This document shows, in pieces, positions 28,830-44,002 of a stretch of 64,000 bases of DNA. The notes under the pieces are model-generated. The model saw only the letters and a list, made by a program, of their open reading frames with translations. It did not search any database and was not told the DNA's origin. Source of the DNA: Citrobacter amalonaticus (lineage in GTDB: Bacteria; Pseudomonadota; Gammaproteobacteria; Enterobacterales; Enterobacteriaceae); contig NZ_PQMB01000003.1 of assembly GCF_002918555.1 (NCBI RefSeq), positions 991,458 through 1,055,457 of the forward strand, given 5' to 3'. Every line of letters starts with the position of its first letter. Position 1 is the stretch's first letter. Made by a program: the position numbers and the translations under genes.

Positions 28830-28950
28830 TAGCAATACTCTTCTGATTTGAGAATTGTGACTGAGATCGATTGTAACGCCAGCCACAGAAAAATGTGATT
28901 GTTTTAATGCCGTTGCCCCAGGCACTGTCGAATGGGGATAAAAAGTATAT

Positions 28951-29075
28951 ACCCTAAATAATTCGAGGTGCAGGAAGGCGGCAAGTGAGTGAGTCCCCGG
29001 GAGCATAGATAACGATGTAACCGGAGTGAGTTGAACGTAGCCAACACGCCCGCAACCCGAAGTATGACGGGTATC
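28951..29075. repeat. ERIC element copy 3 in the pgi-lysC divergent intergenic region
   Basis: ACCCTAAATAATTCGAGGTGCAGGAAGGCGGCAAGTGAGTGAGTCCCCGGGAGC...CCGAAGTATGACGGGTAT. Confidence 0.8.
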
Positions 29076-29136
29076 GCTGTTATAAGCCCTGTTTCTGAGT
29101 CTAAACGCAGCATAAAAAATCCGCATAATCCCGGCG

Positions 29137-29166
29137 TTGACAGTCCAGCCCGCACATTTTATTTAT
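29137..29166 (+). promoter_or_regulatory. Candidate sigma70 promoter for lysC (TTGACA-17-TATTTA), giving an ~85-nt leader
   Basis: Consensus -35 and near-consensus -10 with 17-bp spacer, seen directly. Confidence 0.45.
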
Positions 29167-29255
29167 AAATACGGAATTTGCTTTTGCGCCTGCACCGGTG
29201 TCAGTACTGCCTTTGTGCCATGGTCGCTTTTTTCACTCCCTGACACGAGGTAGTC

Positions 29256-30605
29256 ATGACCGATATTGTTGTCTCCAAATTTGGCGGTACCAGCGTGGCT
29301 GATTTTGACGCCATGAACCGCAGCGCCGACGTGGTGCTTTCCGATGCAAACGTCCGTTTAGTTGTCCTTTCGGCATCTGCCGGGATTACCAATCTGCTGG
29401 TTGCGCTGGCGGAAGGCCTGGAAGCAGCCGCACGTTTCGAAAAGCTCGACGCTATCCGTAAAATTCAGTTCGACATCCTGGAGCGTCTGCGCTATCCGAA
29501 CGTTATTCGCGAGGAGATCGAGCGCCTGCTGGATAACATCACCACGCTTGCCGAAGCCGCTTCTCTGGCCACCTCCACCGCCCTGACCGACGAGCTGGTC
29601 AGCCACGGCGAACTGATGTCGACCCTGCTGTTTGTGGAGATCCTGCGTGAACGTAACGTGCAGGCGCAGTGGTTTGATGTGCGTAAAGTGATGCGTACCA
29701 ACGATCGTTTTGGCCGTGCAGAACCCGATGTTGTCGCGCTCTCTGAACTGGCGACGCTGCAACTGGCACCGCGGCTGGAAGAAGGCCTGGTGATTACTCA
29801 GGGCTTTATCGGCAGCGAAAGCAAAGGCCGCACCACCACTCTGGGACGCGGCGGGAGCGATTACACGGCCGCTCTGCTGGCAGAAGCCCTGCACGCGACG
29901 CGAGTTGATATCTGGACGGACGTGCCGGGCATCTATACCACCGATCCTCGCGTGGTCCCTGCGGCACAACGCATCGATGAGATTGCCTTTGAAGAGGCGG
30001 CGGAGATGGCTACTTTTGGCGCCAAGGTTCTGCATCCGGCAACCCTGTTACCCGCCGTGCGTAGCGATATTCCGGTCTTCGTCGGCTCCAGCAAAGATCC
30101 GAAAGCCGGTGGCACGCTGGTGTGCAACAAAACGAACAATCCGCCGCTGTTCCGCGCGCTGGCGCTGCGTCGTAAACAGACATTGTTAACCCTGCACAGC
30201 CTGAATATGCTGCACTCTCGCGGTTTTCTCGCCGAAGTGTTCGGCATCCTGGCGCGGCATAATATCTCGGTGGATTTGATCACCACTTCGGAAGTCAGCG
30301 TGGCCTTAACCCTGGATACCACGGGGTCGACCTCAACAGGCGATACGTTGCTGACGCAGTCTCTGTTGATGGAGCTGTCTGTATTGTGTCGCGTTGAGGT
30401 GGAAGAGGGTCTGGCATTGGTTGCGCTAATTGGCAACGATCTGTCCAAAGCCTGCGGCGTGGGTAAAGAGGTGTTCGGCGTTCTGGAACCGTTCAACATC
30501 CGCATGATTTGCTACGGAGCTTCCAGCCACAACCTCTGTTTCCTGGTCCCTGGCACCGAAGCTGAGCAGGTCGTACAGAAGCTGCACCATAATCTGTTTG
30601 AGTGA
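29256..30605 (+). CDS. lysC: Lysine-sensitive aspartokinase III LysC (449 aa)
   Basis: MTDIVVSKFGGTSVADFDAMNRSADVVLSDANVRLVVLSASAGITNLLV... matches E. coli LysC. Confidence 0.96.
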   Translation: MTDIVVSKFGGTSVADFDAMNRSADVVLSDANVRLVVLSASAGITNLLVALAEGLEAAARFEKLDAIRKIQFDILERLRYPNVIREEIERLLDNITTLAEAASLATSTALTDELVSHGELMSTLLFVEILRERNVQAQWFDVRKVMRTNDRFGRAEPDVVALSELATLQLAPRLEEGLVITQGFIGSESKGRTTTLGRGGSDYTAALLAEALHATRVDIWTDVPGIYTTDPRVVPAAQRIDEIAFEEAAEMATFGAKVLHPATLLPAVRSDIPVFVGSSKDPKAGGTLVCNKTNNPPLFRALALRRKQTLLTLHSLNMLHSRGFLAEVFGILARHNISVDLITTSEVSVALTLDTTGSTSTGDTLLTQSLLMELSVLCRVEVEEGLALVALIGNDLSKACGVGKEVFGVLEPFNIRMICYGASSHNLCFLVPGTEAEQVVQKLHHNLFE

Positions 30606-30641: not shown

Positions 30642-31436
30642 CTAGAGTGAGTTTCCCATTACCGTCTGATACAGCAGTCTGTCCAGTTCCCTGACATCTC
30701 CTTCCCGACTGTCCGGAATAACCGGCGGGATCTCGCCTCGCGCCAGTTCAGCACGGATAAACGCGTGCAGCAGTGGGCGACGTGGACCGTATTCCGCTTC
30801 TCCCGTACGTTGTTTGCGTTCAAGCAGTTCGTCTATCTCCTGACGTAGCGCGGCATCCAGTTCGCTTCCCGCCAACAGTGCGGCAAAACGCACAGGCGGC
30901 ACGCCCTTCCCTGCTTCAACCCAGCGTACGGCCAGTAACGGGCGCAGGACATAGAAGTATTTTTTTAACCGTACATCCTCACCCTGCAGATAACCGCGGA
31001 AGTTTTTTCGCGCCATCGAGTAGTAGTGCCAACGGGCGCGAAGTGGCGAAAACCATTTTGGTACGAGCGCCTTAAGCGCGGATACCGTTGCCTCATCCTG
31101 ATGATAAACCACCGGTGAACCCAGCCATTCTATCAGCGTGGGGTTAGCCCCCTTCAGTAAACCAAGTGCTTTACGCCACTCCCAGCCGCAGACGTCCAGT
31201 TCATCGTCTATTGGCAGCTCGATTACATCGCGCGGGGCTTCTACCCGCAGGTACCACTCCGGCTGATGGACATATAAAAACCGCACATCGTAATCGCTGT
31301 CTGGAGAAGCGAATCCCCAACCGCGGCTGCCGGATTCGCAGGCATACAGCACCCGAACGCCATAGCGCTGCTCCACCTCTTTCAGCTGCCACGCAACCTG
31401 TTCGCGCATGGCGGCAGTAACACCGTTATTGCTCAT
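30642..31436 (-). CDS. Pol-beta-superfamily nucleotidyltransferase (264 aa), distal gene of the RtcR-associated sigma54 operon
   Basis: GS-x10-DYD motif (ESGSRGWGFASPDSDYDVRF) typical of minimal nucleotidyltransferases; ATGA start/stop overlap with the upstream SPFH gene. Confidence 0.75.
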   Translation of the reverse strand: MSNNGVTAAMREQVAWQLKEVEQRYGVRVLYACESGSRGWGFASPDSDYDVRFLYVHQPEWYLRVEAPRDVIELPIDDELDVCGWEWRKALGLLKGANPTLIEWLGSPVVYHQDEATVSALKALVPKWFSPLRARWHYYSMARKNFRGYLQGEDVRLKKYFYVLRPLLAVRWVEAGKGVPPVRFAALLAGSELDAALRQEIDELLERKQRTGEAEYGPRRPLLHAFIRAELARGEIPPVIPDSREGDVRELDRLLYQTVMGNSL

Positions 31437-32569
31437 CGTTCTGCTCCTTTTATATTCACCAGGCCGTGCAGCACCTGATCCAGACCGCCAAAGACCGAGA
31501 TTTTATCGATACGTTCCGCCACTCTTTCGAGCGTCTCCAGCTCTTTTAAACGCAGCGCCACCGGGTTGTTTTCCATCACTTTCGCGGTGTTCAACAACGA
31601 GCGGGTCGCGGCGGTTTCTTCACGTCGACGAATCACGTTAGCCTGTGCTGACTTTTCCGCTTCCACCAGGCGGGAGAGAATAGCCTTCATATCGCCAGGC
31701 AGGACAATATCCTTCACACCAGGTGAGGCGACTTCAATGCCAAACGGCGCCATACGGGCTTTTACCTGCGCGCTGACGACTTCGTCGATGATCTGCTTAT
31801 TTTCCAGCAGTTCATCAAGGGTGCGCGTTCCCACCGCTTCTCGCAGCGCAAACTGTAACTCCCGGTACAGGTGGTCCAGCGGTTTCGTAAGCCGGGAAAA
31901 TGCCAGCAACACGTCGCTAAAGCGCCAGTTTGCCGCCAGATTCAGGCGCAGATTGACCTTATCTTTGGTCAGGATCTCCTGTCCACCGACCTCCAGCACC
32001 TGCAGACGGGTATCCACCACGTCGGCTTCAACCAGATGATTCACCTTCCAGTACGCGGTCAGACCGGGTGTCAGCAACGGCTGTGTCTCACCGTCAATTT
32101 TCAGAACGCCCACGTGCCAGGCCGGAACCTGTACTGTCAGCATCGCTTCACGTCCTTTCACCGCACCATTACGGCGTGGCTGTAACACCGCATTCATGAC
32201 GTCCGCGGGTACCAGAGCCTGGCGTGTATCCATCCGTACCTGTCTCAACGCCTCATCGGCTCGCCAGTACAGGCGGCGCGTTGACGGCGGCAGGATCTCC
32301 TGCAAAATGTCGTTCATATACAGCGCACCTGCCTCTGTGTCACTTAAATCCACCGCCAGGCAGTAGCGCTCAACCCAGCCGGGCTGGAAGCGACGCAGAT
32401 ACTCCGCCAGCGTTTCCTGCACTTCGCTGCCGTCCAGATTAATGACAAGTACCTCTGGCGTACTGAACCACGGCAGACGATGTTCACCCGCTTCCAGCAC
32501 CTGGTAGTAATCGCCCTCACGGGACAAAAGCCCTAACTGACCTTTTCGTATTGTGATTTTCTTAGCCAT
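31433..32569 (-). CDS. Cytoplasmic SPFH/band-7 (stomatin/flotillin-like) domain protein (378 aa)
   Basis: C-terminal half has SPFH-like coiled-coil segments (…IEVASPGVKDIVLPGDMKAILSRLVEAEKSAQANVIRRREETAA…); no N-terminal TM segment. Confidence 0.78.
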   Translation of the reverse strand: MAKKITIRKGQLGLLSREGDYYQVLEAGEHRLPWFSTPEVLVINLDGSEVQETLAEYLRRFQPGWVERYCLAVDLSDTEAGALYMNDILQEILPPSTRRLYWRADEALRQVRMDTRQALVPADVMNAVLQPRRNGAVKGREAMLTVQVPAWHVGVLKIDGETQPLLTPGLTAYWKVNHLVEADVVDTRLQVLEVGGQEILTKDKVNLRLNLAANWRFSDVLLAFSRLTKPLDHLYRELQFALREAVGTRTLDELLENKQIIDEVVSAQVKARMAPFGIEVASPGVKDIVLPGDMKAILSRLVEAEKSAQANVIRRREETAATRSLLNTAKVMENNPVALRLKELETLERVAERIDKISVFGGLDQVLHGLVNIKGAER

Positions 32570-32858
32570 TTCTCTGTTCCTTATAAAATCAGGTGCGGGT
32601 GCAGGGGCGAAGCCACAGGGGAATTCCCTTTTGCCTGTGGCGCGGCGCCATTACCGGCAACCTGCTGTTGGGGATTGCTAACCGCTCAACGCCCCGTTTC
32701 TATTTCTGTGATTAACAACCAGTTTCATTGGGAAAATGAATCGGGAATCGAACCCATTGTTCAGGTGTCATCTGCTGACGGAACACTCCGGGAAAACAGC
32801 CTCTGCCGTTCCTGACGTGCCGGCGGGGTTTAACCCCCTGCGTTTTCAGCGTTATTGA
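32570..32858 (-). ncRNA. ~290-nt leader of the SPFH-NTase operon carrying a tRNA T-arm-like motif (GGGTTCGATTCCC at 32744-32756 on the minus strand) and stem-loops (GGGG-ttaaa-CCCC; GCCACAGG...CCTGTGGC); possible structured cis-RNA or Y-RNA-like element
   Basis: Motif seen directly; by analogy to the tRNA-like YrlA Y RNA in the Salmonella RtcR-controlled rsr-yrlBA-rtcBA operon (inference); no full cloverleaf identified. Confidence 0.25.
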
Positions 32859-32866
32859 CCCATGTG

Positions 32867-32887
32867 TTATTGCCAGAAGCGTGCCAG
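32867..32887 (-). promoter_or_regulatory. Sigma54 (-24/-12) promoter CTGGCACgcttcTGGCAat driving the SPFH-NTase operon; AT-rich upstream region (32890-33019) may hold IHF/UAS sites
   Basis: TGGCAC-N5-TGGCA matches the TGGCAC-N5-TTGCW consensus with correct spacing, on the minus strand, divergent from rtcR-like gene. Confidence 0.6.
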
Positions 32888-33019
32888 AAAGAAAAAACGA
32901 CAAAATATTTTTTTAATTTATTGATTATTATTGTTTTTATTTTTCATGCTGGTTTTGACGATTGCCGTAACCTGCAGGATTTTTTATCTTTTAATATCGA
33001 ATATTATCTTTATGGATAA

Positions 33020-34603
33020 ATGATGAAAAAGCGGCGGGTAGTGATTGGTGTCCTGGGCACGGTGTTGGATAAACGCGGCAAGCGGGCAAACCGGTTTAAG
33101 AAATGGCGGCCCACGGTCGGCTTGTGCCAGCAGGCTGATTTCCCGATCGACAGGCTGGAACTGCTCCACCAGCCGCGAGATGAGAGCATGGCGCAACGGT
33201 TGATTGAAGATATCGCCCAGCTTTCACCCCATACCGACGTCCGCGCACAGGCGATCACAATTAACGATCCGTGGGATTTTGAGGAGGTCTACGCTGCGTT
33301 TCTCGACTTTGCCACACATTATGAATTTGATACGCAAAACGAAGAGTATCTGGTGCACATCACCACCGGCACCCACGTGGCGCAGATCTGCTGGTTTCTG
33401 CTAACGGAAGCCCGCTACCTGCCTGCCAGCCTGTTGCAAACCAGTCCGGCAACGAAAGGTTCATCAGACGAAGCTATCGCCGCTGGTGTCTGTTCGGTGA
33501 TCGATCTTGATTTAAGCCGCTATGCCACGCTCACCAGTCGCTTTCAGCGCGAGCAACAGCAGTCGGTCTCATTCCTGAAAGCCGGTATTGAAACGCGCAA
33601 TGTGACGTTCAACAAACTTATCGACCGAATTGAGCGGGTTGCGCTACGTTCAACAGATCCGATTCTGCTTACCGGCCCCACCGGTGCGGGTAAATCCTTT
33701 CTTGCAAAACGTATTTTTCAGCTTCGCCAGTCGCGTCATCTGGTGGCAGGAAAGCTGGTGGCAATAAACTGCGCCACCCTGCGCGGCGACAATGCGATGT
33801 CTACGCTGTTCGGTCACGTGAAAGGCGCTTTTACCGGGGCGCTGGCTCCACGTACCGGGCTATTACGTGAGGCCGATGGCGGCGTGCTGTTTCTCGATGA
33901 AATCGCCGAATTGGGGCTGGATGAACAGGCCATGCTGCTGAAAGCGATTGAAGAGAAAACGTTTTTTCCATTTGGCTCGGATACAGAGGTCCATAGCGAC
34001 TTTCAGCTGATTGTCGGAACCCATCGCGATATGCCGCAGTGGGTGGCGGAAGGCCGCTTTCGCGAAGATCTCTACGCGCGTATCAATATGTGGCGTTTCG
34101 CCCTGCCTGGTCTGGCGCAGCGGCGCGAAGATATCGCCCCGAACGTCGAGTATGAGCTTCAGCGTTTTTCCCGCAGTAAACAGATGCAGATCCGCTTTGA
34201 TAAAGAGGCCCGCGAGCGCTATCTGGCATTTGCCTGCTCGACGCAGGCACAGTGGCGCGGCAACTTTCGCGAGCTGAGCTCTTCCGTTGCGCGCATGGCG
34301 ACGCTTGCCGAACAGGGACGTATTACGTTAGTCCTTGCTGAAGAAGAGATTGCGCTACTGCAAGAGAACTGGCAAAGCACTGCCTCACTACCTGAGCTGG
34401 AGGGGGAGATCGACCTTTTCGACAGGCGACAGCTGGAAACGGTGCTGGAGGTATGCCGCCGCTGCGCATCGTTGTCTGAAGCCGGACGAGAACTCTTCGC
34501 CGTCTCCCGACAGAAAAAAGCCAATCCCAACGATGCCGACCGCCTGCGCAAGTACCTGGCCCGCTTTGGGCTGAGCTGGGAGAGCATCCGCTGCGGATCA
34601 TGA
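33020..34603 (+). CDS. rtcR: RtcR-family sigma54-dependent transcriptional activator (CARF-like N-domain + AAA+ sigma54-interaction domain + C-terminal HTH), 527 aa
   Basis: Walker A LLTGPTGAGKSFLAKRI, GAFTGA motif (HVKGAFTGALAPRTG), N-terminus MMKKRRVVIGVLGTVLDKRG... resembling E. coli RtcR, C-terminal HTH. Confidence 0.85.
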   Translation: MMKKRRVVIGVLGTVLDKRGKRANRFKKWRPTVGLCQQADFPIDRLELLHQPRDESMAQRLIEDIAQLSPHTDVRAQAITINDPWDFEEVYAAFLDFATHYEFDTQNEEYLVHITTGTHVAQICWFLLTEARYLPASLLQTSPATKGSSDEAIAAGVCSVIDLDLSRYATLTSRFQREQQQSVSFLKAGIETRNVTFNKLIDRIERVALRSTDPILLTGPTGAGKSFLAKRIFQLRQSRHLVAGKLVAINCATLRGDNAMSTLFGHVKGAFTGALAPRTGLLREADGGVLFLDEIAELGLDEQAMLLKAIEEKTFFPFGSDTEVHSDFQLIVGTHRDMPQWVAEGRFREDLYARINMWRFALPGLAQRREDIAPNVEYELQRFSRSKQMQIRFDKEARERYLAFACSTQAQWRGNFRELSSSVARMATLAEQGRITLVLAEEEIALLQENWQSTASLPELEGEIDLFDRRQLETVLEVCRRCASLSEAGRELFAVSRQKKANPNDADRLRKYLARFGLSWESIRCGS

Positions 34604-34714: not shown

Positions 34715-35656
34715 ATGCTCGCCACCTTTACAAGGCTGTTCCCATTATGGGCGCTGCTGCTCTCTGTTATTGCGTATTACACGCCATCGACCTTTGGCCC
34801 AGTCGGACCGTGGGTGCCCACGCTGCTGATGCTGATTATGTTCGGCATGGGCGTACATCTTAAAGTCGACGACTTCAGGCGCGTACTCTCCCGCCCGGCC
34901 CCGGTTGCCGCGGGTATTTTCCTGCACTATCTGGTGATGCCGCTCGCCGCCTGGCTGCTGGCGCTGGCCTTTAATATGCCGCCGGAGCTTTCTGCCGGGA
35001 TGGTGCTGGTCGGCAGCGTCGCCAGCGGCACAGCATCTAACGTGATGATTTATCTTGCAAAGGGAGACGTGGCGCTTTCAGTGACCATTTCCTCCGTTTC
35101 CACGCTGGTGGGCGTGGTGGCCACGCCGCTGCTGACGCGCCTGTATGTCGATGCGCATATCCAGGTTGATGTGATGGGTATGCTGCTCAGCATTTTGCAG
35201 ATTGTGGTGATCCCGATTGCCTTGGGTCTGGTGGTTCATCACCTGTTCCCACGTGTAGTAAAAGCAGTAGAGCCATATCTGCCCGCATTTTCAATGGTGT
35301 GTATTCTGGCAATCATCAGCGCGGTCGTCGCCGGTTCGGCTTCACATATTGCTTCCGTCGGCTTTGTGGTGATCATCGCGGTTATTCTGCACAACACCAT
35401 TGGCCTGCTTGGTGGCTACTGGGGAGGAAGGCTGTTTGGCTTTGACGAATCCACCTGCCGCACGCTGGCAATCGAGGTTGGGATGCAGAACTCCGGTCTT
35501 GCTGCCGCGCTGGGTAAAATCTACTTCGGCCCGCTTGCCGCACTGCCCGGCGCGCTGTTCTCCGTCTGGCACAATCTTTCGGGTTCGCTGCTGGCGGGTT
35601 ACTGGTCCGGCAAGCCGATTAATGAGAAGCCACAAAAGATCGTAAAAGAGAAATAG
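34715..35656 (+). CDS. Bile acid:sodium symporter (BASS/SBF) family transporter (313 aa)
   Basis: ~9 TM helices and SBF-like motifs (…[30 protein letters not shown]…). Confidence 0.8.
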
Positions 35657-35921: not shown

Positions 35922-36488
35922 TCAATGAGTGACAGTGACACCCTCCCCGGTTTCAGCATCCAGGACAAACTCCGAGAAGATAAATTGTCTGACCTGAAGT
36001 ATCGAACTGAGGTTAAGCTTTTGCCCTATTCTGCTGGTATAGGAATAGACAGTTTTTGGCGACAGATAAATTTTCCTGGCAGCCGCCCAGGTGTCGTCAG
36101 TATCAAGCAGGGCAAAAAGTGTCTTTTTTTCCTGAACTGAAAGTATGCTGAGACTCCTGTAGCGTGCAATGTGGTTTAACGCATATTCAGGTGAATGCGT
36201 CCTGCCGTCGGTGAGTTGTTTTCGAAACTCCATAAAGCACGATTTTCTGTATATCGTTACAATCGGCTCAAGAACTCTTGAACTGACATCCTTGCCACCG
36301 ATGAAGATCAACCTATGCTTTTCAATCAGTTTATTTCTTTTCAGCAGTCTGAATATCGACCCCAGGCTTCTGAAAGATTCAATGTCAATGACGCAAACCT
36401 TCCTGCTGGCAGGAACTTGCTGAAGGATGACAGACAACGCGTTATTAAAAAAAACATCTTTAGTCAAAATTATGTGAGGCATAAACAT
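35922..36488 (-). CDS. LuxR/FixJ-family HTH regulator with degenerate receiver-like N-domain (188 aa)
   Basis: C-terminal LuxR-type HTH (LSVQEKKTLFALLDTDDTWAAARKIYLSPKTVYSYTSRIGQKLNL); AT-rich gene immediately downstream of the autotransporter. Confidence 0.6.
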   Translation of the reverse strand: MFMPHIILTKDVFFNNALSVILQQVPASRKVCVIDIESFRSLGSIFRLLKRNKLIEKHRLIFIGGKDVSSRVLEPIVTIYRKSCFMEFRKQLTDGRTHSPEYALNHIARYRSLSILSVQEKKTLFALLDTDDTWAAARKIYLSPKTVYSYTSRIGQKLNLSSILQVRQFIFSEFVLDAETGEGVTVTH

Positions 36489-36515
36489 AACCGGAAAATT
36501 TCAGAACACAATGAA

Positions 36516-36535
36516 AAGGGGCCCTGAGGCCCCTG
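36516..36535 (-). terminator. Hairpin AGGGGCC-tcag-GGCCCCT just after the autotransporter stop
   Basis: Perfect 7-bp-arm inverted repeat 9 bp past the stop codon. Confidence 0.5.
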
Positions 36536-36543
36536 ATATAACA

Positions 36544-39500
36544 TCAGAATCCGATACGGATACCGGCCACACCCTGGACCGGTGTCTCTGTGTGGCTGCC
36601 CTGACGATAATTAGCCTCGCCATATAAGGTTACGTCCCTGCCAACACTGACCGATGCGCCCAGACCATACTTGCCTGATGTCCCTTTGACGTTGTTATCG
36701 AAGCGGTTGCGTGCATTGATGGTGACCTCATTTGCGTCCGCAAACTCCTGCACGACCGCAGCCGACAAATAAGGCTTAAATTCAGTCTCACCGAGGCTGA
36801 ATTTACCGGTAAGCTTCGCGCCGGCCTCACCCGTGACCGAGCGTGGCGTGCCGGTGTTACCCTTCATGCCGTTGCTCAGCTTCACGTCCTCACTGCTCAT
36901 CTGAACATACGCCAGGCGGGCATAAGGCGTGAGACTCAGGTCGTCCCTCACATCAAACTGATAGCCCCCTTCAACGGCTGTGCTGAGACCATACTGCTTC
37001 CAGTCACCGCCGGTTTTGCCGCCATTGGTCATAACGGCGCTCAGTTTGTTGTTCAGGCGGTTACCCTTCACCACACCGTCAGCGTAGAAGCCGCTGGCAT
37101 CGAACCATGTTGCATACAGGCCGATACCGTAGCTGTCGATGTTGCTTTTTCCACCGCGGGCATGCTTAACCTGGTTGTCGCTGTAAGACATGAATGCCCC
37201 CGTGAAGAGGCTGCCGCGCGCAAAATCCGTCCGCGTGTCGGCGCCGATTTCCATGCCGCTCTGATTAAGCTGATACGCCGCGCCGTTGCTGGTATCCGTA
37301 TGGTTTTTGCTGCCGAGGTAGTGACCCCAGACGTTATTCTCCGGTCCGGTTTTATCCAGATTCGCCCGGTACATGCGCAGGCCATCAAGTTCGGAGTGAA
37401 TGACATTCAGGCCGGCATTCGACATGGCCAGGATGGCGTCCGCTGCCGGAGTGGTCATCGGCTTCTTGCCACCGCCCGGGTTTTCACCGCCACCTGGATT
37501 CTCACCGCCACCTGGATTCTCACCGCCACCCGGATTCTCACCGCCGCCAGGGTTCTCGCCACCGCCAGGGTTCTCGCCGCCACCCGGATTCTCACCACCG
37601 CCAGGGTTCTCGCCACCGCCCGGGTTCTCACCACCGCCAGGTTCTTCCGTCATCGCGCCCAGGTACCAGACGTTCCCGCCGTTCAGACCATCCTTGTTCT
37701 GCTGGCTGAACAGCGTGTACATGTAAGTCCCACCGTCAATGGCCCGGATACTGCGGCCTGACGCCGTGACCATCTCAAAATCAATATCGCCACCCTGCTC
37801 GTGAATGAGATTCACCGTCAGGTCTGTATGGTCTGATATCTCCTTACCGGAGTCGGTAACAGCGATACCGAAGTGACCCGTACCCTGTTCGATGGTGACA
37901 AAGTTGGCATTACGCTCAGCGAGAGAAGTATTGAACAGGAAGCTGCCGGTGCCGCTGAGTTCGGAGATGTTCAGCTCCGCGAAGTCACCTTCACCGTTAC
38001 GCAGGAAGGAGACATTGCCGCCGTTCATGGTGAGCTTATCGACCTGAGCCGGGGTATAACTGGTGGTGGTATCGGTAAGGTCGGCGACAGAGAGGGTCCC
38101 CCCTGTGATGCGCACGTCCGTTGCGACAGAGCCAGCGTCCATCAGCAGTTCACCACCGGCGTTCACTTTGGTTTCGCCGTCAGCCAGTGCCCCCGTCTGC
38201 AGCCACGACTGACCGCTATTGATGGTGGTGTTAATAGTCGTGCCGCCACTGGAGACCCACTGCCTGCCACCGCTATTGATAGTGGTATCAACAGCGGTGG
38301 CACTGTCGAGTAGCTGTATACCACCATTAATGGTGGTAGTGATGATGGTGGTTGCCTCGCCATCGATAACTTGTTGAATGCCACCGCTGTTAATGATGGT
38401 GTCAATGGTGGTGCCACCTGAAAAGTACTGTATGCCACCGCTGTTAATTGTGGTGTCAATGGCGGTGCCACCTGAAAGGTACTGTGTGCCACTGCTGTTA
38501 ATTGTGGTGGCAATAGCTGAACCGCCAATGTCGATGTATTGGAGACCTCCGTAGATGGTGGTGTCATTGGCAGTGCTCCCACTGGAGACGAACTGCACGC
38601 CAAAGTAGTTGATGGTGGTATCAGTGGCGATGCCGCCATCGTAGACATACTGCTGGCCACCGCTGTTGATGGTGGTATCAGTGGCGGTGCCGGCATAGAC
38701 TTTCTGCCAGCCACCGCTGTTGAGGGTGGTGTTGGTGGCAGTGCCGCGCTGGACCAACTGCTCACCGCCATTGAGGATAGTGTTCGTAGCTATACCACCG
38801 ACGAACTGAACACCATTGAAGATGGTAGTGTTTGTTGCAGAGCCGCCGCTTAAGACCGACTGCTGGCCACCGCTGTTAATGGTGGTCTCAGTGGCTGTTC
38901 CCCCTATAGTGACCCATTGCGCGCCACCGCTTTTGATGGTGGTGTTAGTGGCTGTGCCGCCACTGAAGACGTTCTGCCTGCCACCGCTGTTGATGGTGGT
39001 GTTAGTGACTGAGCCCTCACTTTGGACGCTTTGAGAACCGCCGTTAATGGTGGTGTCAGTGGCTGTGCCACCTCGCTCGACGTATTGAAAACCGCTGTTG
39101 ATTATGGTGTTTGTGGCTGTGCCCTCATTGAAGACGTCCTGATAACCACCATTAACGGTGGTGCCAATGGCTGTGCCGCCACTGGAGACGTACTGATAAC
39201 CACCACTGTTGATGGTGGTTTTTGTGGCTATGCCCTCATTGAAGACTACTTGATAACCACCATTCACAGTGGTGTCAGTGGCCGAACCTCCGCTGTAGAC
39301 GTCCTGATGACCACCATTAACGGTGGTGTCAGTGGCTGTGCCGCCGCTGGAGACGTTCTGTCCGCCCCCGCTGTTGATGGTGGTGTTTGTGGCTGTGCCG
39401 CCGTTGACGTATTGAGTGCCGCGGCTGTTAATAGTGGTGTCATTGGCCGTGCCGTCACTGGAGACGTACTGCTCGCCACCGCTGTTAATTGTAGTTTCGG

Positions 39501-40167
39501 TAGCCGTGCCGCCACTGAAAACTTTCTGCCAGCCACCTGTGTAGATGGTGGTGTCAGTGGCCGAACCGCCGCTGTAGACGTCTTGATGACCACCACCATT
39601 AATGGTGGTGACAGTGGCAGAGCCGCCACTGAAGACGCTTTGACTACCACCGTTAATGGTGGTGTCAGTGGCTGTGCCCCTATTGTAGACATTCTGACTG
39701 CCACCGCTAATAGTGGTGTCAGTGGCTGTGCCGCCGCTAACGATCTCCTGCTTGCCACCACTGTTGATGGAAGTGTCAGTGGCTGTGCCACCTAAGATGT
39801 ACTGGTCGCCACCGTTGTTGATGGTGGTCTCAGTGGCCGAGCCCCCAACGTAGACGTCCTGCATGCCCCCATAGTTGATGACGGTCTCAGTGGCTGAGCC
39901 CCCATTGTAGATGTACTGACTGCCACCGTTGATAGTAGTAGAGGTGGCCGTATCTCCTGAAGAAATAGTCTGTTCACCCGTTAGCGTCACGTCCACATAA
40001 TCCACGGCCATGACCGGCGCTGAGGGCAGCAGCATTGCCCCCAGCAGCAGTGCCAACGCGCTTTTCTTCGGCACCAGCTTCGGGCGACCGGACCCGGATG
40101 CCAGTTCAGAGGTGACCACCCACTGCTGGCGCGACTCGCACCAGACGGTGGTATATATCTTGTTCAT
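36544..40167 (-). CDS. AIDA-I/TibA/Ag43-type self-associating autotransporter adhesin (1207 aa) with ESPR signal peptide, ~19-aa imperfect passenger repeats, (PGGGEN)n linker and C-terminal beta-barrel
   Basis: N-terminus MNKIYTTVWCESRQQWVVTSELA (extended signal peptide region); >30 repeats of GGTATDTTINSGGxQxVxS; C-terminal autotransporter barrel ending ...VAGIRIGF. Confidence 0.9.
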   Translation of the reverse strand: MNKIYTTVWCESRQQWVVTSELASGSGRPKLVPKKSALALLLGAMLLPSAPVMAVDYVDVTLTGEQTISSGDTATSTTINGGSQYIYNGGSATETVINYGGMQDVYVGGSATETTINNGGDQYILGGTATDTSINSGGKQEIVSGGTATDTTISGGSQNVYNRGTATDTTINGGSQSVFSGGSATVTTINGGGHQDVYSGGSATDTTIYTGGWQKVFSGGTATETTINSGGEQYVSSDGTANDTTINSRGTQYVNGGTATNTTINSGGGQNVSSGGTATDTTVNGGHQDVYSGGSATDTTVNGGYQVVFNEGIATKTTINSGGYQYVSSGGTAIGTTVNGGYQDVFNEGTATNTIINSGFQYVERGGTATDTTINGGSQSVQSEGSVTNTTINSGGRQNVFSGGTATNTTIKSGGAQWVTIGGTATETTINSGGQQSVLSGGSATNTTIFNGVQFVGGIATNTILNGGEQLVQRGTATNTTLNSGGWQKVYAGTATDTTINSGGQQYVYDGGIATDTTINYFGVQFVSSGSTANDTTIYGGLQYIDIGGSAIATTINSSGTQYLSGGTAIDTTINSGGIQYFSGGTTIDTIINSGGIQQVIDGEATTIITTTINGGIQLLDSATAVDTTINSGGRQWVSSGGTTINTTINSGQSWLQTGALADGETKVNAGGELLMDAGSVATDVRITGGTLSVADLTDTTTSYTPAQVDKLTMNGGNVSFLRNGEGDFAELNISELSGTGSFLFNTSLAERNANFVTIEQGTGHFGIAVTDSGKEISDHTDLTVNLIHEQGGDIDFEMVTASGRSIRAIDGGTYMYTLFSQQNKDGLNGGNVWYLGAMTEEPGGGENPGGGENPGGGENPGGGENPGGGENPGGGENPGGGENPGGGENPGGGENPGGGKKPMTTPAADAILAMSNAGLNVIHSELDGLRMYRANLDKTGPENNVWGHYLGSKNHTDTSNGAAYQLNQSGMEIGADTRTDFARGSLFTGAFMSYSDNQVKHARGGKSNIDSYGIGLYATWFDASGFYADGVVKGNRLNNKLSAVMTNGGKTGGDWKQYGLSTAVEGGYQFDVRDDLSLTPYARLAYVQMSSEDVKLSNGMKGNTGTPRSVTGEAGAKLTGKFSLGETEFKPYLSAAVVQEFADANEVTINARNRFDNNVKGTSGKYGLGASVSVGRDVTLYGEANYRQGSHTETPVQGVAGIRIGF
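37470..37652. repeat. Tandem 18-bp in-frame repeat (x10) encoding (PGGGEN)10 inside the autotransporter
   Basis: Units CCGCCNCCNGGRTTCTCR repeated head-to-tail on the plus strand; encodes EEPGGGENPGGGEN...PGGGKKP. Confidence 0.9.
38100..39975. repeat. Intragenic ~57-bp (19-aa) imperfect tandem repeat array of the autotransporter passenger domain
   Basis: Repeated TINSGG.Q.V.SGGTATDT peptide units; explains the many shadow ORFs on both strands here. Confidence 0.85.
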
Positions 40168-40178
40168 AGTAACGCTCC

Positions 40179-41348
40179 TTAATTATCAACTAATCCTGCA
40201 TGCAGACGGTCCACCATCCCTGTAACCTGTCGTCCGGTTATCAGCCGCGTGCACTCATACTGTCTTGGGGTATCCCTGTGATGCGGGCACCACAAAAAAT
40301 CCTGGTGGTCAAAGTCAACCGACGTGTCATCCCAGCAGCCGTTACAGCCATGACTGCTGAACACCCGCCAGGGGGTGTAAAATTCGCTATTCGGAAGGCT
40401 GAATCCGCTGATCAACACCACAGGTATGTCAGTTGCCCAGGCAAGCCATGACAGCCCGCTGGCCAGACCGATAAAGAAACTCGCATGCATTAACAGGTCC
40501 ACCCGATCCTGAAGCGGAATGTCGCCCGTGAAGTCTTCGGCACCATAGGGGATGTGGTTCCAGACGAAGCCCTGACCGTGACGGGCCTGGCGGTCAATGC
40601 ACAGCACCCGGTACCCCAGTGATTTAAGGTGGGCAACCACCTCTGCCCAGCCATGACCGTTGTTCCAGTATTTCGCCTGGTTGGTTGACTGTGCGGCGAT
40701 ACAGACGTACGGCTCCGCAATTTTTCGCTCTGCATCCAGTTTCAGACGAGGCGGAGACTCACGGGGGTCAACCCCGAGGATGTAACCGGCATTGCGGTGA
40801 AAACCGACTTTCCTGAAATCAATGGGCTGATGAAGGGTGTCACCCTGAAAGAAAATGCCGACATACCAGGACGCGTAGGGATTCACTGTCCGGAGAGATT
40901 CTTTTGTGGAGAAGGTAATCTCAGGATATTGTGCGCTGAGCAGGTCAATGATTTCCTGCCCCATGACGCATTCAAGCTGGCACCGGTGCAGTTGACGAAA
41001 TCGCTCGGCGTAAGGGAACCAGCCAAGCATATCGCCCAGCGTCCCGGTCGGGAAAAAGATGACGACCGGCTTGTCCTTCATGTCCAGTGTTTCATCCAGG
41101 ACCGGATGCGCTTCTCCCTGGTGGAATACCTGAATACGGAAACGGACGTAATATTTTTTGGTACTGGTGACCCACCCTCCGTCAGAATCACAACTGAAAA
41201 GTATATTGCCGGATTCATCATCCATTAAAATGACATGCCATTTCCCTTCCGGAAGGTAAACGCGTGCACCGTAATTAAAGTCAAACAGAATGCCTTCCGG
41301 TCCGGCGCAGGTCGGAAACTCCGGAGGAGTTGCAAAGTTAACTGACAT
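40179..41348 (-). CDS. Autotransporter adhesin heptosyltransferase (Aah/TibC-like BAHT family), 389 aa, upstream of and co-oriented with the autotransporter
   Basis: Gene order (transferase then AIDA-like autotransporter, 11-bp gap) mirrors aah-aidA and tibC-tibA; size and Cys-rich C-terminus (CNGCWDD...CPHH) fit TibC-like enzymes; assignment by similarity is moderate. Confidence 0.65.
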   Translation of the reverse strand: MSVNFATPPEFPTCAGPEGILFDFNYGARVYLPEGKWHVILMDDESGNILFSCDSDGGWVTSTKKYYVRFRIQVFHQGEAHPVLDETLDMKDKPVVIFFPTGTLGDMLGWFPYAERFRQLHRCQLECVMGQEIIDLLSAQYPEITFSTKESLRTVNPYASWYVGIFFQGDTLHQPIDFRKVGFHRNAGYILGVDPRESPPRLKLDAERKIAEPYVCIAAQSTNQAKYWNNGHGWAEVVAHLKSLGYRVLCIDRQARHGQGFVWNHIPYGAEDFTGDIPLQDRVDLLMHASFFIGLASGLSWLAWATDIPVVLISGFSLPNSEFYTPWRVFSSHGCNGCWDDTSVDFDHQDFLWCPHHRDTPRQYECTRLITGRQVTGMVDRLHAGLVDN

Positions 41349-41552
41349 ATCTCATCTATCCTTAGTATTCATTTGCAATCGGTAATGATTTAATCAATTG
41401 CACAGGTTATTCTTCTGCAATGTTTTTTCGTGACGGGTTGTGAGCTGTTTTATATCAGGCCCATAAGCAGTTCCACATTTCACATGTTTCCCGGCTGTAA
41501 AAACGTTTAAAATTAACTTGTAGTGGATGATTAACTTTTAATTTTGCCTGGA

Positions 41553-42386
41553 CTAATGATGTTCAATCTTTTCACAAGAGTGAAGAAGTAAAATGTGTGC
41601 ACAAAACTCGCGCATACTTACAGGTCGAGAAAACAAATAGCCCTGAAAGGTATCAATCCCCTTCATTTCTAAAAGCTTAAACTGCTCATTCGTTTCAACA
41701 CCTTCAGCAATAATATGCAGATTTAACTTCTCACTAAAAGACATGATGGCGTCAATAACAGAGGAATAAATCAATTTATGGTTACAAACCATCGTTAAAC
41801 ATTTGTCAATTTTTATCGTTGAGAATCCAGCGTGTTCAATGTATTTTAAGCATGAACCACCACTGCCATAATCATCTATTGAAAAACCAACACCTGACGC
41901 AACAAGCTCCTGCATCGCATCCAGGGCAAAATCGTCAAATTCTAATGTGCCACGCTCAACAATCTCAAGAATAACCATGATGTCTTTGCCAAAATGAATA
42001 TTAAATTCTTTAACCGCTTTTACCATTCGTGATGAATTGAGCTGTTGGGCACAGATATTAAAAGAAAAATAAAAACCTTTCGGTAGAGACTCAACATGAG
42101 GAGTGAAATGTGCTTTCACTTTCTCCAGAAGTTCACAAGTAACATCGTTGCATACTTCACCGCTTTCAATAACAGAAAGATACGATTCTGGAGAATGAAG
42201 GACACCATTCTTTTTCACCCTCATAAGGACTTCGCATCCCACTAATTCTCCCGACTGGTAAACAGGTTGAATAAAAGGAACAAACTCGGCACCTGCAAGT
42301 TCGGAGGTCAATATGGATTTTCTTACTGACCGTAGCAATCTACAAATCACTTGTTCTGTTTTCCTGAGTATTCTGATATTTGTCAT
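41553..42386 (-). CDS. Stand-alone EAL-domain protein (c-di-GMP phosphodiesterase-like, possibly degenerate), 277 aa
   Basis: EVL(M)R in place of EALxR, DDYGSG (DDFGTG-like) and KIDK motifs; no GGDEF or sensor domain; AT-rich. Confidence 0.8.
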   Translation of the reverse strand: MTNIRILRKTEQVICRLLRSVRKSILTSELAGAEFVPFIQPVYQSGELVGCEVLMRVKKNGVLHSPESYLSVIESGEVCNDVTCELLEKVKAHFTPHVESLPKGFYFSFNICAQQLNSSRMVKAVKEFNIHFGKDIMVILEIVERGTLEFDDFALDAMQELVASGVGFSIDDYGSGGSCLKYIEHAGFSTIKIDKCLTMVCNHKLIYSSVIDAIMSFSEKLNLHIIAEGVETNEQFKLLEMKGIDTFQGYLFSRPVSMREFCAHILLLHSCEKIEHH

Positions 42387-42720
42387 CGTCAGGGCCCCTT
42401 ACTCGTGTGCTCACAATCCTGCAGGAGATACCGTTCGCTAATCATCTGATGCAATCGGTAACTCATGTATTAACGGCCAACAGGCCAGTTCACTTTTGAC
42501 GGGGAAATTTTATCTCCCTCATGCTGTAATCAACAACATGTATCTTAAATTTCAAAAATACCAGACTTATATTTTTAAATACATTGACTATACGAACGTT
42601 TATTCTGGTACGGGCGTCATCACGGCTGGGTATGATATGCTAATGAGAAGGTCACAGAGGGGTTAATGAAACAAGGACTGCTGTCTTTCGTCAGTCTGCA
42701 GCCAGGTTTCGTGGAGAGTC

Positions 42721-43527
42721 TTGATGGAGTATTTAATCAATTCACAGGTAAGGTATCGTACAGATGACGGTGCAATATGGCCTGTACGGGATGATGAATC
42801 GGTCATTATTCTGACCATAACAATGAACAGGCTGCTAGTCTATCTTCTGGAAAGACAGGGGCAGGTTGTTAAGCGGGATGAACTGCTAAATAATGTCTGG
42901 GACTTACATGGCCTGCGATCGTCCAGCCATACCCTGAATAAATACATTTCCGAAATCAGAAAACACTTTATGAGAGCTGGCATTCATCATGAGTGTATTA
43001 CGACGATTCCAAGGGTCGGGTTTGTTTTTAACAGTGATGTCGAGGTTATAGCAATTGATAATGCGGAAAATAATATACATTCGGATACTATAAATGCTGC
43101 TGTCGGGACGGTTCTTACTCATTCAATACAACCCTTAAGATACAAAGCATGGTATGCAGCAATAACCCTTTTTATCATCATATGTAGCACCGCCCTTATA
43201 ATCTCTGGCAATCGCCTAAAATCTAAAACAAACGTCAAATTACAAGACGCTCCTGTTTATTTTCTTTTCAATTATCAAACCTGTCCAGTTTATACGACGC
43301 AAAAAAACTCCGCATCGTTTCTCGAACAAAAAAAGAAAGTTTTTCTTGATCTTGTGAACGTCAATAAAATTGAGTGTCTGAACGGCACCTCGTTTCTGTA
43401 TCAGGCATCCGACTCCTATATGTATGGTAGTAAAGGACGTATATTTATCAGCAGATGCACATCTAAAAAAAATAAATATCTTTCCTGCCTAAATAATTAC
43501 TGGACTGGTTATGAACAAAATCAATAA
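42721..43527 (+). CDS. ToxR/CadC/PsaE-like membrane-anchored transcriptional activator: N-terminal OmpR-type winged helix, one TM helix, periplasmic C-domain (268 aa)
   Basis: wHTH segment RLLVYLLERQGQVVKRDELLNNVWDLHGLRSSSHTLNKYISEIRKHF; TM AWYAAITLFIIICSTALIISG; AT-rich. Confidence 0.7.
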   Translation: MMEYLINSQVRYRTDDGAIWPVRDDESVIILTITMNRLLVYLLERQGQVVKRDELLNNVWDLHGLRSSSHTLNKYISEIRKHFMRAGIHHECITTIPRVGFVFNSDVEVIAIDNAENNIHSDTINAAVGTVLTHSIQPLRYKAWYAAITLFIIICSTALIISGNRLKSKTNVKLQDAPVYFLFNYQTCPVYTTQKNSASFLEQKKKVFLDLVNVNKIECLNGTSFLYQASDSYMYGSKGRIFISRCTSKKNKYLSCLNNYWTGYEQNQ

Positions 43528-44002
43528 TATACAAAGATGGCTCGCTGCTATTTTAATCCTAATTCTGACTTTATCCCTCTGGTTCTATCTACATGCACGT
43601 CAGCAACAAAAGGGTATGGATGTTAACTGTGCGGCAAGCTTACGTTATAATCAGCGTGATCCTGATTTTATAGCCACGTTCGACATGATTTTCCGGCTGA
43701 ACAAAAGTTTTTATGGCCAGGTATTCCTGTTCGGTAATATTCACTCTGAACGTGGAGTAGAAGTTATCTCCCGGACTATTCAGTTTAATTATGAGGTTTA
43801 CAGACCGGGAGAGATTTCGGTGACGAACATGCATTATGCAAAAAATATCAGTGATACAGCTAATGATGAGCTTTTCAAACAGAGATTTTTCTACGTCCCT
43901 GAAAATTCTTCACGTGTGCTCAGGCTTAATCCGTCAGGCAATAGCTGGTTAATTGAAAACCTTCAATCCCCTTTCGCGCTTTGCGTGAATAAAGACGGAT
44001 AG
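43511..44002 (+). CDS. ToxS/PsaF-like partner: N-terminally membrane-anchored periplasmic protein (163 aa), 17-nt overlap with the upstream regulator gene
   Basis: Single N-terminal TM (WLAAILILILTLSLWFYL), size and operon arrangement as for ToxS/PsaF/VtrC partners; sequence similarity itself not verifiable by eye. Confidence 0.5.
   Translation: MNKINNIQRWLAAILILILTLSLWFYLHARQQQKGMDVNCAASLRYNQRDPDFIATFDMIFRLNKSFYGQVFLFGNIHSERGVEVISRTIQFNYEVYRPGEISVTNMHYAKNISDTANDELFKQRFFYVPENSSRVLRLNPSGNSWLIENLQSPFALCVNKDG

Follow-up and report, generated by a model that had tools for sequence, protein, structure and literature searches.

A stretch of 64 kb from Citrobacter amalonaticus, referred to here as the window, carries a trio of rtcR, a Band-7 gene, and a gene for the nucleotidyltransferase RlaP that is probably a reduced derivative of the "Band-7 type" Rtc RNA-repair operon, lacking the ligase and the cyclase. 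The trio is set between lysC (29256-30605) and yjbD (44326-44595), as the initial annotation had placed it, and all of the features that annotation named at the locus were found in their positions. RtcR, a sigma54-dependent activator of 527 aa, is encoded on the plus strand (33020-34603). Behind a divergent promoter, the minus strand encodes a soluble, stomatin-like ("slipin") Band-7/SPFH protein of 378 aa (31433-32569) and the 264-aa RlaP, a member of the Pol-beta superfamily (30642-31436). The stop codon of the Band-7 gene and the start codon of the RlaP gene are joined in an ATGA overlap, indicative of translational coupling, and the earlier description of these as two overlapping genes holds. 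No RtcB or RtcA was encoded in the window, the whole of which was searched.

The regulator is a genuine RtcR. It scored 815 bits over residues 4-524 against NCBIfam NF038308, the equivalog model "RNA repair transcriptional activator RtcR" (cut-off 650), and 860 bits against the PADLOC model RtcR--CARF_AAA_HTH. Pfam RtcR (PF06956) was matched by residues 4-189 (2.9e-81), and Sigma54_activat (PF00158) was matched at 1.6e-46. These models group the protein with RtcR, including the CARF-type N-domain that had been proposed for it; an AAA+ core, with GAFTGA present in the translation, and a C-terminal HTH complete the protein. Over its full length, it shares 62% identity with E. coli RtcR, and the dN/dS of rtcR is 0.05-0.11.

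A near-consensus promoter of the form TGGCAC-N5-TGGCA (-24/-12; TGGCACGCTTCTGGCA, 32871-32886, minus strand) faces away from rtcR. This is the sole match to TGGCAC-N5-TKGCA in the 64 kb, where 0.12 would be expected by chance, and the element recurs in the same position in 22 of 25 RtcR-linked loci, at approximately 130-150 nt from the start codon of rtcR. The earlier reading of the divergent promoter as a sigma54 promoter is supported. Transcription probably starts near 32860, and the leader would therefore be approximately 291 nt long. A putative upstream activating sequence (UAS; 32983-33019), consisting of TTATC-N7-GATAA and further CGATA/GATAA repeats, adjoins the rtcR start codon and may be bound by RtcR; its motif is conserved across 11 aligned rtcR-promoter intergenic regions (alignment A4), one of which is the canonical E. 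coli rtcR-rtcB region. A likely IHF-like site (AATCAATAAATTA, WATCAA-N4-TTR; 32914-32926, minus strand) precedes the -24 element by approximately 30-40 nt, and its core, CAAT..TTA, is kept in most of the same 11 regions. A UAS and an IHF site have been reported for the E. coli rtcBA promoter (PMC9650030).

In Pfam, the transferase falls within PF10127, RlaP ("RNA repair pathway DNA polymerase beta family"; 1.1e-94), whose name reflects an association with RNA ligases and which has been characterised biochemically (PMC12776372). Residues G36-S37, D48, D50, and D81 are almost invariant across 20 homologues, with no more than 1 exception, the dN/dS is 0.04-0.18, and the protein shares 55-60% identity with RlaPs from full rtc operons in Pseudomonas, Chitiniphilus, and Burkholderia. 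Membership in this family supports the earlier suggestion of a transferase that would act on RNA 3' ends. PfRlaP and PaRlaP (PF10127; PMC12776372) share with it the family, the GS motif, and the three catalytic Asp residues, and it is 57-58% identical to RlaPs in Pseudomonas rtc operons; unlike for PfRlaP and PaRlaP, no RNA ligase gene adjoins it and its activity is predicted. A match to PHROG 14344 (1.6e-113) indicates that close relatives of RlaP are present in phages. The comparison with MenT/AbiEii toxins made in the initial annotation found no support: no nucleotidyltransferase Pfam family other than RlaP was matched at E<=0.01, and PADLOC gave no hits for the Band-7 protein or RlaP.

The Band-7 protein matched Pfam Band_7 (3.7e-26). 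An N-terminal beta-rich double repeat of approximately 145 aa precedes its SPFH domain, which is followed by long C-terminal helices. Hydrophobic segments are absent (the highest Kyte-Doolittle mean over 19 residues is 0.86), as is any transmembrane or hairpin anchor, in agreement with the cytoplasmic SPFH protein of the initial annotation. The gene is found across many Citrobacter species. Stomatin-type SPFH ring and cage assemblies were counted among the closest known systems, together with the major vault protein as a looser likeness.

The leader RNA has a conserved structure with 60 base pairs, 28 of which have compensatory changes. This structure was overlooked in the initial annotation. 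Domain 1 (32774-32850, minus strand) is a three-way junction: it is closed by a stem GCUGA/UCAGC, and its two hairpins are P1 (32825-32838) and P2 (32780-32821), the latter long and bulged. In a MAFFT alignment (A5), 93.5% of its cells were paired and 8 pairs were changed on both sides, and none of 500 shuffles was as high; on alignment A6, 92% were paired compared to 72% when shuffled, with compensatory changes in 20 of 24 pairs. A covariance model (R1) scored 98 bits at domain 1 in the window, matched the equivalent spot ahead of Band-7 at 16 further loci (E<0.01), and also placed domain 1 there in betaproteobacterial operons. Domain 2 (32591-32693, minus strand) consists of a hairpin (32671-32693) and a long irregular stem (32591-32662), ending approximately 10 nt ahead of the Shine-Dalgarno sequence AAGGAA (32577-32582). 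Its helices 5-7 were 78-94% paired, and 16 of 32 pairs were changed on both sides (RNAalifold and pair counts, alignment A3).

Between the domains is a tRNA T-arm mimic (UGGGUUCGAUUCCCG, 32742-32756, minus strand) with stem covariation and a conserved GGTTCGATTCC that was kept in every enterobacterial leader compared. The T-arm part (13 nt) gave the sole match of Rfam models to the leader, no family being matched by the leader as a whole, and ARAGORN found no full tRNA in the leader, which has no cloverleaf. Immediately 3' of the T-arm is a hairpin, AUUCAUU-loop-AAUGAA (32724-32741, minus strand), that is acceptor-stem-like but loop-closed, and the two together have a minihelix-like shape. The hairpin stem is kept with differing sequences in Klebsiella, Superficieibacter, and Lonsdalea, as judged by eye on alignment A3, the MAFFT alignment being poor there. 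The Rfam YrlA model did not match the leader of the window and matched a Pseudomonas leader only partially (33 bits).

We tabulated the architecture of 80 related loci. The full form, RtcR / tRNA-like RNA / Band-7 / RtcB / RlaP / RtcA, was present in Chitiniphilus, Pseudomonas, Delftia, Acidovorax, and others (L012, L013, L019, L022, L027, L030, L035), and the reduced form, RtcR / Band-7 / RlaP without RtcB and RtcA, in the window and in L004, L005, L006, L007, and L043. The genera that carry the reduced form are Citrobacter, Klebsiella, Superficieibacter, Mangrovibacter, and Lonsdalea. Since the homologous loci have the order RtcR / Band-7 / RtcB / RlaP / RtcA, the Citrobacter set corresponds to this operon without RtcB and RtcA. 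These two genes are missing in one enterobacterial lineage, and the remaining parts are all under purifying selection; the trio genes have a dN/dS of 0.04-0.18, with ORFs intact and full length in six genera. In almost all of the non-enterobacterial loci, Band-7 is preceded at 240-550 nt by a gene for a tRNA-like RNA, and in the reduced-form lineage the canonical tRNA-like gene is reduced to the T-arm. The link of Band-7 with tRNA genes, RtcB, and RlaP persists across phyla. An E. coli strain with a Band-7-RlaP pair keeps canonical rtcR-rtcBA, and rtcR itself is gone from its Band-7-RlaP locus. One Band-7-RlaP pair (L002) adjoins prophage and defence-type genes, and another adjoins a zeta toxin.

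Compared to the full operons of Pseudomonas, Burkholderiales, and relatives, the window proteins are 57-65% (RtcR), 52-62% (Band-7), and 51-60% (RlaP) identical, and the divergent sigma54 promoter at an equal distance, the UAS and IHF motifs, the gene order, leader domain 1, and the T-loop element are held in common. The window differs in the absence of RtcB and RtcA, in having the T-arm alone in place of a tRNA-like gene detectable by ARAGORN, and in the direct ATGA coupling of Band-7 to RlaP. RtcR, the UAS/IHF/sigma54 promoter, the leader RNA, Band-7, and RlaP are each orthologous to parts of the full operon. Canonical E. coli rtcR-rtcBA shares the regulator family, a divergent sigma54 promoter, and similar UAS and IHF motifs; however, it is at malT rather than lysC-yjbD, its cargo is RtcB and RtcA alone behind a short leader, and it has no Band-7, RlaP, or structured RNA. 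Salmonella rsr-yrlBA-rtcBA follows the same logic, in that RtcR governs RNA-end enzymes, a non-coding RNA that mimics tRNA, and a protein with a putative scaffold role (PMC7790460; bioRxiv 10.1101/312249), but its scaffold is Ro60/TROVE instead of Band-7, its RNAs are Y RNAs, and a ligase is present.

The Band-7 type Rtc operon was described in silico by Burroughs and Aravind in 2016 (NAR 44:8525), who, as relayed in bioRxiv 10.1101/312249, linked RtcB operons with RlaP, Band-7 proteins, and a "band-7-associated tRNA". One example of this operon type, the rtc locus of P. aeruginosa, contains a Band-7 protein, PaFlo8 (PMC13086221). The initial annotation was correct that the cargo lacks rtcBA, but not that the effectors are completely different or that the SPFH partner is outside the known Rtc systems. 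Because the gene pair is part of a named system that has already been characterised and the transferase is RlaP, the claim of an undescribed module is largely refuted.

From work on relatives, RNA damage would produce tRNA fragments with 2',3'-cyclic phosphate ends (the RtcR ligand; PMC7790460), RtcR would oligomerise and switch on the sigma54 promoter, and the transcript would supply a structured RNA of approximately 290 nt and the Band-7 and RlaP proteins. We propose that Band-7 may form a soluble ring or cage that, with the leader RNA, would be a scaffold for damaged tRNA, and that sealing, if any, would be by a ligase encoded elsewhere, such as canonical RtcB. Several points argue against a reduced repair operon. 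An operon without RtcB in cis cannot finish "repair" by itself, and the 3'-OH product of RlaP is not ligatable by RtcB, a problem raised by the authors of that work themselves (PMC12776372). In E. coli, RtcR is activated only when its CARF domain has bound RtcA and RtcB (PMC9650030), and both of these proteins are missing at the locus. The leader has no cloverleaf, and its expression, processing, and binding by Band-7 are predicted. In addition, deletion of paFlo8 in P. aeruginosa had no phenotype in standard assays.

Alternatively, the trio could be self-sufficient ("healing without sealing"), with RlaP on the Band-7/leader RNA scaffold rebuilding or tagging RNA 3' ends independently of a ligase; candidate ends are truncated tRNA 3' termini or ends needing protection from exonucleases, and loss of RtcB and RtcA would be a change of function, not reliance on a ligase elsewhere. 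We consider this rather unlikely. The ligase-less form occurs in at least 5 genera under strong purifying selection, RlaP labels full-length tRNAs and rRNAs in addition to fragments, its product is ill-suited to RtcB (PMC12776372), and the leader has its minihelix-like element. However, RlaP in vitro favours an anticodon-loop nick over the tRNA 3' end (PMC12776372), most taxa pair these three parts with RtcB, and the E. coli strain retains rtcBA. It is very unlikely that the locus is a toxin or abortive-infection module that poisons tRNA in the manner of MenT/AbiEii once RtcR senses RNA damage caused by phages or toxins: the phage relatives of RlaP and the pairs beside prophage/defence-type genes and zeta toxin would fit, but the Pfam and PADLOC results do not, no antitoxin-like partner is at the locus, RlaP treatment before ligation partly restored aminoacylation in vitro of a tRNA minus one nucleotide (PMC12776372), and in most taxa the genes sit inside ligase and cyclase operons. 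A decaying rtc remnant without current function, already disfavoured, is extremely unlikely; the losses of RtcB, RtcA, and the canonical tRNA-like gene, and of rtcR at the E. coli locus, would fit, but the ORFs are intact at low dN/dS, the promoter and UAS persist, the RNA helices are maintained through compensatory changes, and many Citrobacter species carry the Band-7 gene. There is almost no likelihood that Band-7 is an ordinary membrane-microdomain or protease-modulating SPFH protein (HflK/C- or QmcA-like) with incidental neighbours, for although its SPFH domain resembles stomatin, HflK, and QmcA, it has no membrane anchor, scores far below the NCBIfam HflK/HflC cut-offs, has no NfeD partner gene in the operon, and is coupled translationally to RlaP and linked to tRNA genes and RtcB across phyla.

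For the reduced Band-7 type Rtc operon that we favour, RlaP and the link of Band-7 and tRNA-like RNA to RtcB operons were already known, and what differs here is the form without RtcB and RtcA. The locus offers a workable enterobacterial system for the Band-7/RNA/RlaP module without a ligase.

Three open reading frames (ORFs) were found between lysC and yjbD/rluF where the initial annotation had placed an island, and in the ORF list of the window they were the only genes between lysC and the SBF-family transporter gene. The rtcR gene (33020-34603, plus strand) encodes 527 amino acids, while the Band-7 gene (31433-32569) and the RlaP gene (30642-31436), both on the minus strand, encode 378 and 264 amino acids, respectively. 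The stop codon of the Band-7 gene and the start codon of the RlaP gene overlap as ATGA, in keeping with the translational coupling that had been proposed. The description of the regulator as an RtcR-type protein with a CARF-like domain and a sigma54 core was also upheld. The NCBIfam equivalog NF038308 matched residues 4-524 at 815 bits (cut-off 650), the N-terminus matched the Pfam RtcR family PF06956, a CARF-type domain (2.9e-81), and the AAA+ core matched Sigma54_activat PF00158 (1.6e-46), with GAFTGA present in the translation. The PADLOC model RtcR--CARF_AAA_HTH scored 860 bits, and the protein was 62% identical to E. coli RtcR from end to end. RtcR of Salmonella is activated by tRNA fragments with 2',3'-cyclic phosphate ends (PMC7790460), and activation of RtcR in E. 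coli requires RtcA and RtcB (PMC9650030). In E. coli and Salmonella, RtcR governs rtcBA; in the window, neither rtcB nor rtcA neighbors rtcR.

A near-consensus sigma54 promoter divergent from rtcR had been claimed, and TGGCACGCTTCTGGCA (32871-32886, minus strand) was the sole match to the pattern TGGCAC-N5-TKGCA in the 64-kb window, compared to 0.12 matches expected by chance. With the -12 element at 32872, transcription is predicted to start near 32860, which would give a leader of approximately 291 nt. Under the strict pattern, a sigma54 element was located 130-150 nt from the rtcR ATG in 22 of 25 RtcR-linked loci. Alignment of 11 intergenic regions (A4) showed conserved TTATC-N7-GATAA / CGATA repeats adjoining rtcR, which are candidate upstream activating sequences (UAS), and a conserved IHF-like ATCAA-N4-TTA upstream of the -24 element. 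The canonical E. coli rtcR-rtcB region in the same alignment also had UAS-like repeats and an IHF-like site, and a UAS and an IHF site have been reported for that region (PMC9650030). Because the promoter, UAS-like, and IHF-like elements are conserved and are also seen in the E. coli rtcR-rtcB region, dependence of the window operon on RtcR and sigma54 is well supported at the level of sequence.

The only Pfam match of the 264-residue protein at E<=0.01 was PF10127 ("RlaP, RNA repair pathway DNA polymerase beta family"), with 317 bits (1.1e-94; cut-off, 23). The protein has kept both the GS motif of Pol-beta enzymes and the three catalytic carboxylates, with G36, S37, D48, D50, and D81 near-invariant among 20 sequences, and it was 51-60% identical to RlaPs from operons that also encode RtcB and RtcA. 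A PDB sequence search with the window RlaP returned no relative. The name, RNA ligase-associating Pol-beta, is traced to Burroughs and Aravind 2016 in PMC12776372. That December 2025 preprint reports that two Pseudomonas RlaPs (PfRlaP and PaRlaP), whose genes lie between rtcB and rtcA, add 1-2 NMP onto RNA 3'-OH ends, favor Mn2+ and the 5' half of nicked tRNA, and can restore aminoacylation to a tRNA lacking one nucleotide (PMC12776372). RlaP is already biochemically characterized. The 3'-OH product is not a substrate of RtcB (PMC12776372), and for this reason the place of RlaP in the pathway is uncertain.

We annotated 80 related loci carrying a Band-7 family gene (L handles), taken from a one-genome-per-species scan, by tblastn with RtcR, Band-7, RlaP, RtcB, and RtcA. 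The full form, with RtcR divergent from Band-7, RtcB, RlaP, and RtcA, was present in Chitiniphilus, Pseudomonas, Delftia, Acidovorax, and others (L012, L013, L019, L022, L027, L030, L035). Burkholderia (L010) had Band-7, RtcB, and RlaP without RtcA, and Providencia and Gilliamella (L008, L017) had RtcR, Band-7, and RtcB. In the reduced form, RtcR is divergent from Band-7 and RlaP only; this form was found in the window, Klebsiella oxytoca, Klebsiella sp., Superficieibacter, Lonsdalea, and Mangrovibacter (L004-L007, L043). A tblastn search detected neither RtcB nor RtcA anywhere in the 64-kb window, nor at a distance of up to 8 kb in L004-L006 and L043; the Lonsdalea contig (L007) stops approximately 3.4 kb past Band-7. 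The lysC...yjbD site was common to the Citrobacter, Klebsiella, and E. coli copies. The operon of the Band-7 type RNA-repair system described by Burroughs and Aravind in 2016 includes a gene for an RNA ligase of the RtcB or ATP-grasp type, whereas the window operon has none; the soluble Band-7 protein of about 375 amino acids and RlaP are both present.

That system also has a tRNA-like RNA directly upstream of Band-7. Nearly all non-enterobacterial loci had 1-2 tRNA or tRNA-like genes at 240-550 nt upstream of Band-7 and on its strand, many had entire tRNA arrays there, and the leaders usually had two T-loops approximately 70 nt apart. Enterobacterial leaders had one T-loop (GGTTCGATTCC) and no cloverleaf, and ARAGORN at default settings called no tRNA in the window leader. 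Searches of Rfam matched a 13-nt T-arm alone in the leader and nothing in the whole window at gathering scores. The YrlA model RF02553 had no match in the window leader even at E<=10, and the three-gene content from lysC to the transporter gene leaves no room for rsr (Ro60) in the operon. One Pseudomonas leader had a tRNA at 50.8 bits together with a partial YrlA at 33 bits.

Folding of the single leader sequence was uninformative (z = -0.22), and its structure was revealed by comparative analysis only. Seven enterobacterial leaders were aligned with MAFFT (A3) and folded with RNAalifold, and the result was cleaned to a 60-pair structure. Of the cells in this structure, 92.4% pair, compared to 84% in shuffled alignments and at most 49% when partners were slid by 1-3 columns; 28 pairs were changed on both sides, compared to 11 +/- 2.5 in shuffles. 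On the minus strand, the structure consists of domain 1, a three-way junction (32774-32850), a T-arm (32742-32756), a hairpin after the T-arm (32724-32741), and domain 2 (32591-32693), whose end lies immediately ahead of the Shine-Dalgarno sequence. For domain 1, a covariance model (R1) recovered all enterobacterial copies at 72-98 bits and, at E<0.01, matched the corresponding position of 10 loci from beta- or other proteobacteria. In the R1-fitted alignment, which includes some weak matches, 20 of 24 domain-1 pairs had compensatory changes, and an independent MAFFT alignment (A5) gave the same answer. The leader thus has a T-arm and structured domains at the position homologous to the tRNA-like RNA, and it looks like a band-7-associated tRNA region in which the canonical tRNA-like gene has been reduced or lost. 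It matched no Rfam 15 family and is a candidate RNA motif.

Two other candidates in this region were set aside. ARAGORN calls at relaxed thresholds occurred in all enterobacterial leaders, but were low-scoring, inconsistent, and on both strands, and were treated as noise. A 63-aa TTG-initiated ORF (32712-32903, minus strand) lies over the sigma54 promoter and domain 1; a coding role is very unlikely, given that this ORF begins ahead of the promoter and that the region is conserved as base-pair covariation. Separately, in most loci the Band-7 family gene directly followed tRNA genes, which often formed entire same-strand arrays of 10-25 tRNAs, including at loci with no RtcR/RtcB nearby (among L009-L083; for example, L065 3530-7667, L036 3527-7580, L021 1332-3294, and L068 51-1990).

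The best-supported reading of the trio is a damage-induced RNA-end-healing module descended from a Band-7 type Rtc operon. By analogy with Salmonella (PMC7790460), RtcR would sense damaged tRNA and fire the sigma54 promoter. The transcript would then supply the structured RNA, a Band-7 scaffold, and RlaP to extend 3'-OH ends, and sealing would either be carried out by a ligase encoded elsewhere or be unneeded. Alternatively, the trio could rebuild or tag RNA ends autonomously. Band-7, the leader of approximately 290 nt, and RlaP would form a damage-induced ribonucleoprotein in which a stomatin- or vault-like cage captures broken tRNAs via the cognate RNA and RlaP rebuilds their 3' ends with no need for RtcB. 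The ligase-less operon and the structured leader are consistent with this scenario, which we nevertheless consider unlikely. If it were true, the enterobacterial operon would be a minimal functional core and no leftover, and the leader would be a new class of non-coding RNA, combining a three-way junction with a T-arm minihelix and a long stem.

A role as a toxin or in defense was raised by the likeness of the nucleotidyltransferase to MenT/AbiEii-type toxins proposed in the initial annotation. That likeness was not borne out, as PF10127 was the sole family matched, PADLOC defense models matched neither Band-7 nor RlaP, and there was no small partner ORF. The operon could also be a decaying remnant of the full form, as the missing ligase and cyclase genes might indicate. 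However, all ORFs of the reduced operon were full length and pairwise dN/dS was 0.04-0.18 for all three genes; the sequences therefore indicate an operon that is not decaying and is under purifying selection. A membrane role of the kind known for SPFH proteins, suggested by the Band-7 domain itself, is the weakest of these alternatives, since the protein has no N-terminal anchor, the operon has no NfeD-like gene, and the HflK/HflC NCBIfam models scored only 18-31 bits against cut-offs of 134-660.

The Band-7 protein had been called cytoplasmic, and this agrees with the lack of a hydrophobic segment (maximum Kyte-Doolittle 19-residue mean, 0.86). It aligned over its full length with 31 homologues (A2) of a family of about 375 amino acids, which shares an N-terminal extension and comprises 529 clusters at E<=1e-30; orthologues adjoin RtcB in more than 25 loci. 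In the AF2 model, which is confident (pLDDT 87), two beta-rich repeats span residues 1-145 and are followed by an SPFH domain and long helices. We conclude that the protein is soluble, stomatin-like, and probably ring-forming; a resemblance to vault is only a lead. Homologues of the Pseudomonas aeruginosa SPFH protein PaFlo8 have been said to be absent from Enterobacterales (PMC13086221). We observed them there in many Citrobacter species, the Klebsiella oxytoca-group, Superficieibacter, Mangrovibacter, Lonsdalea, Providencia, and a few E. coli. The window protein itself was matched at 100% in Citrobacter amalonaticus, which identifies the source of the window.

Among 5426 complete E. coli genomes, 3 had Band-7-RlaP at lysC-yjbD; these kept the leader and its sigma54 promoter but had no adjacent rtcR. 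A zeta-toxin gene was beside RlaP in the E. coli copies (L001, strain PapRG-06-5, 7027-10241; L085, 15328-19371). The one strain checked, PapRG-06-5, still had canonical rtcR-rtcBA at its malT locus. This suggests that the E. coli copies are controlled in trans by canonical RtcR. An IMG/VR contig classed as viral (L002, 169-9260) had Band-7-RlaP at its edge, 83-87% identical to the window pair, with tail-fibre, integrase, SNF2, and TIR (CAP12/Pycsar-type) genes as neighbors. The lysC-adjacent site may be a hotspot for integration and defense.

Other features of the window were also noted. From the SBF-family transporter gene (34715-35656) to yjbD, the stretch 35922-44300 contained extra genes that were absent at the corresponding Klebsiella position, including a LuxR-type regulator (35922-36488) and a 1207-aa ORF (36544-40167) with GGENP repeats, which by eye is an autotransporter candidate. 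The lysC leader (pgi-lysC intergenic region, 28830-29255) had no match to the Rfam lysine riboswitch RF00168, whereas the orthologous E. coli leader matched at 99.5 bits, and only the last 80 nt or so before the ATG aligned between the two. The upstream part (GTGAGTCCCCGGGAGCATAGATAAC...), which we take to resemble an ERIC/IRU-type intergenic repeat, had weak Ysr49 and V_AS5 matches. This strain may have a displaced or destroyed lysine aptamer.

The 2016 abstract of Burroughs and Aravind is said to count among RNA-repair components a novel nucleotidyltransferase as well as SPFH/Band-7 modules accompanied by a novel tRNA-like RNA. The suggestion that the cargo was undescribed did not stand. The transferase is RlaP, an earlier preprint notes that in some bacteria the neighbors of RtcB include a Band-7 protein together with a predicted "band 7-associated tRNA" (bioRxiv 10.1101/312249), and PaFlo8 sits within the P. 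aeruginosa rtcR/rtcB/rtcA locus, where its deletion has no known phenotype (PMC13086221). The parts and their association are thus already known, with Band-7 and the tRNA-like RNA known from prediction alone; our literature search found no experimental test of their roles in bacterial RNA repair, which have been predicted since 2016. Within the literature searched, the conserved ligase-less and cyclase-less architecture in Enterobacterales, the evidence of selection on the reduced operon, and the covariation-supported leader structure, including a domain common to betaproteobacteria, appear to be new.

Surprise to specialists would be limited, and the value of the finding is a clean, tractable system for the function of Band-7, RNA, and RlaP. 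In genetically tractable hosts (Citrobacter, Klebsiella, and a few E. coli strains), the reduced operon sets the Band-7/RNA/RlaP sub-module apart from the ligase and cyclase while retaining a single RtcR/sigma54 switch. It makes testable the role of the sub-module itself, the need for a ligase encoded elsewhere, and the activation of RtcR without RtcA and RtcB. The same operon also offers a candidate RNA motif in its leader, above all in the domain-1 three-way junction, which occurs in betaproteobacteria as well.
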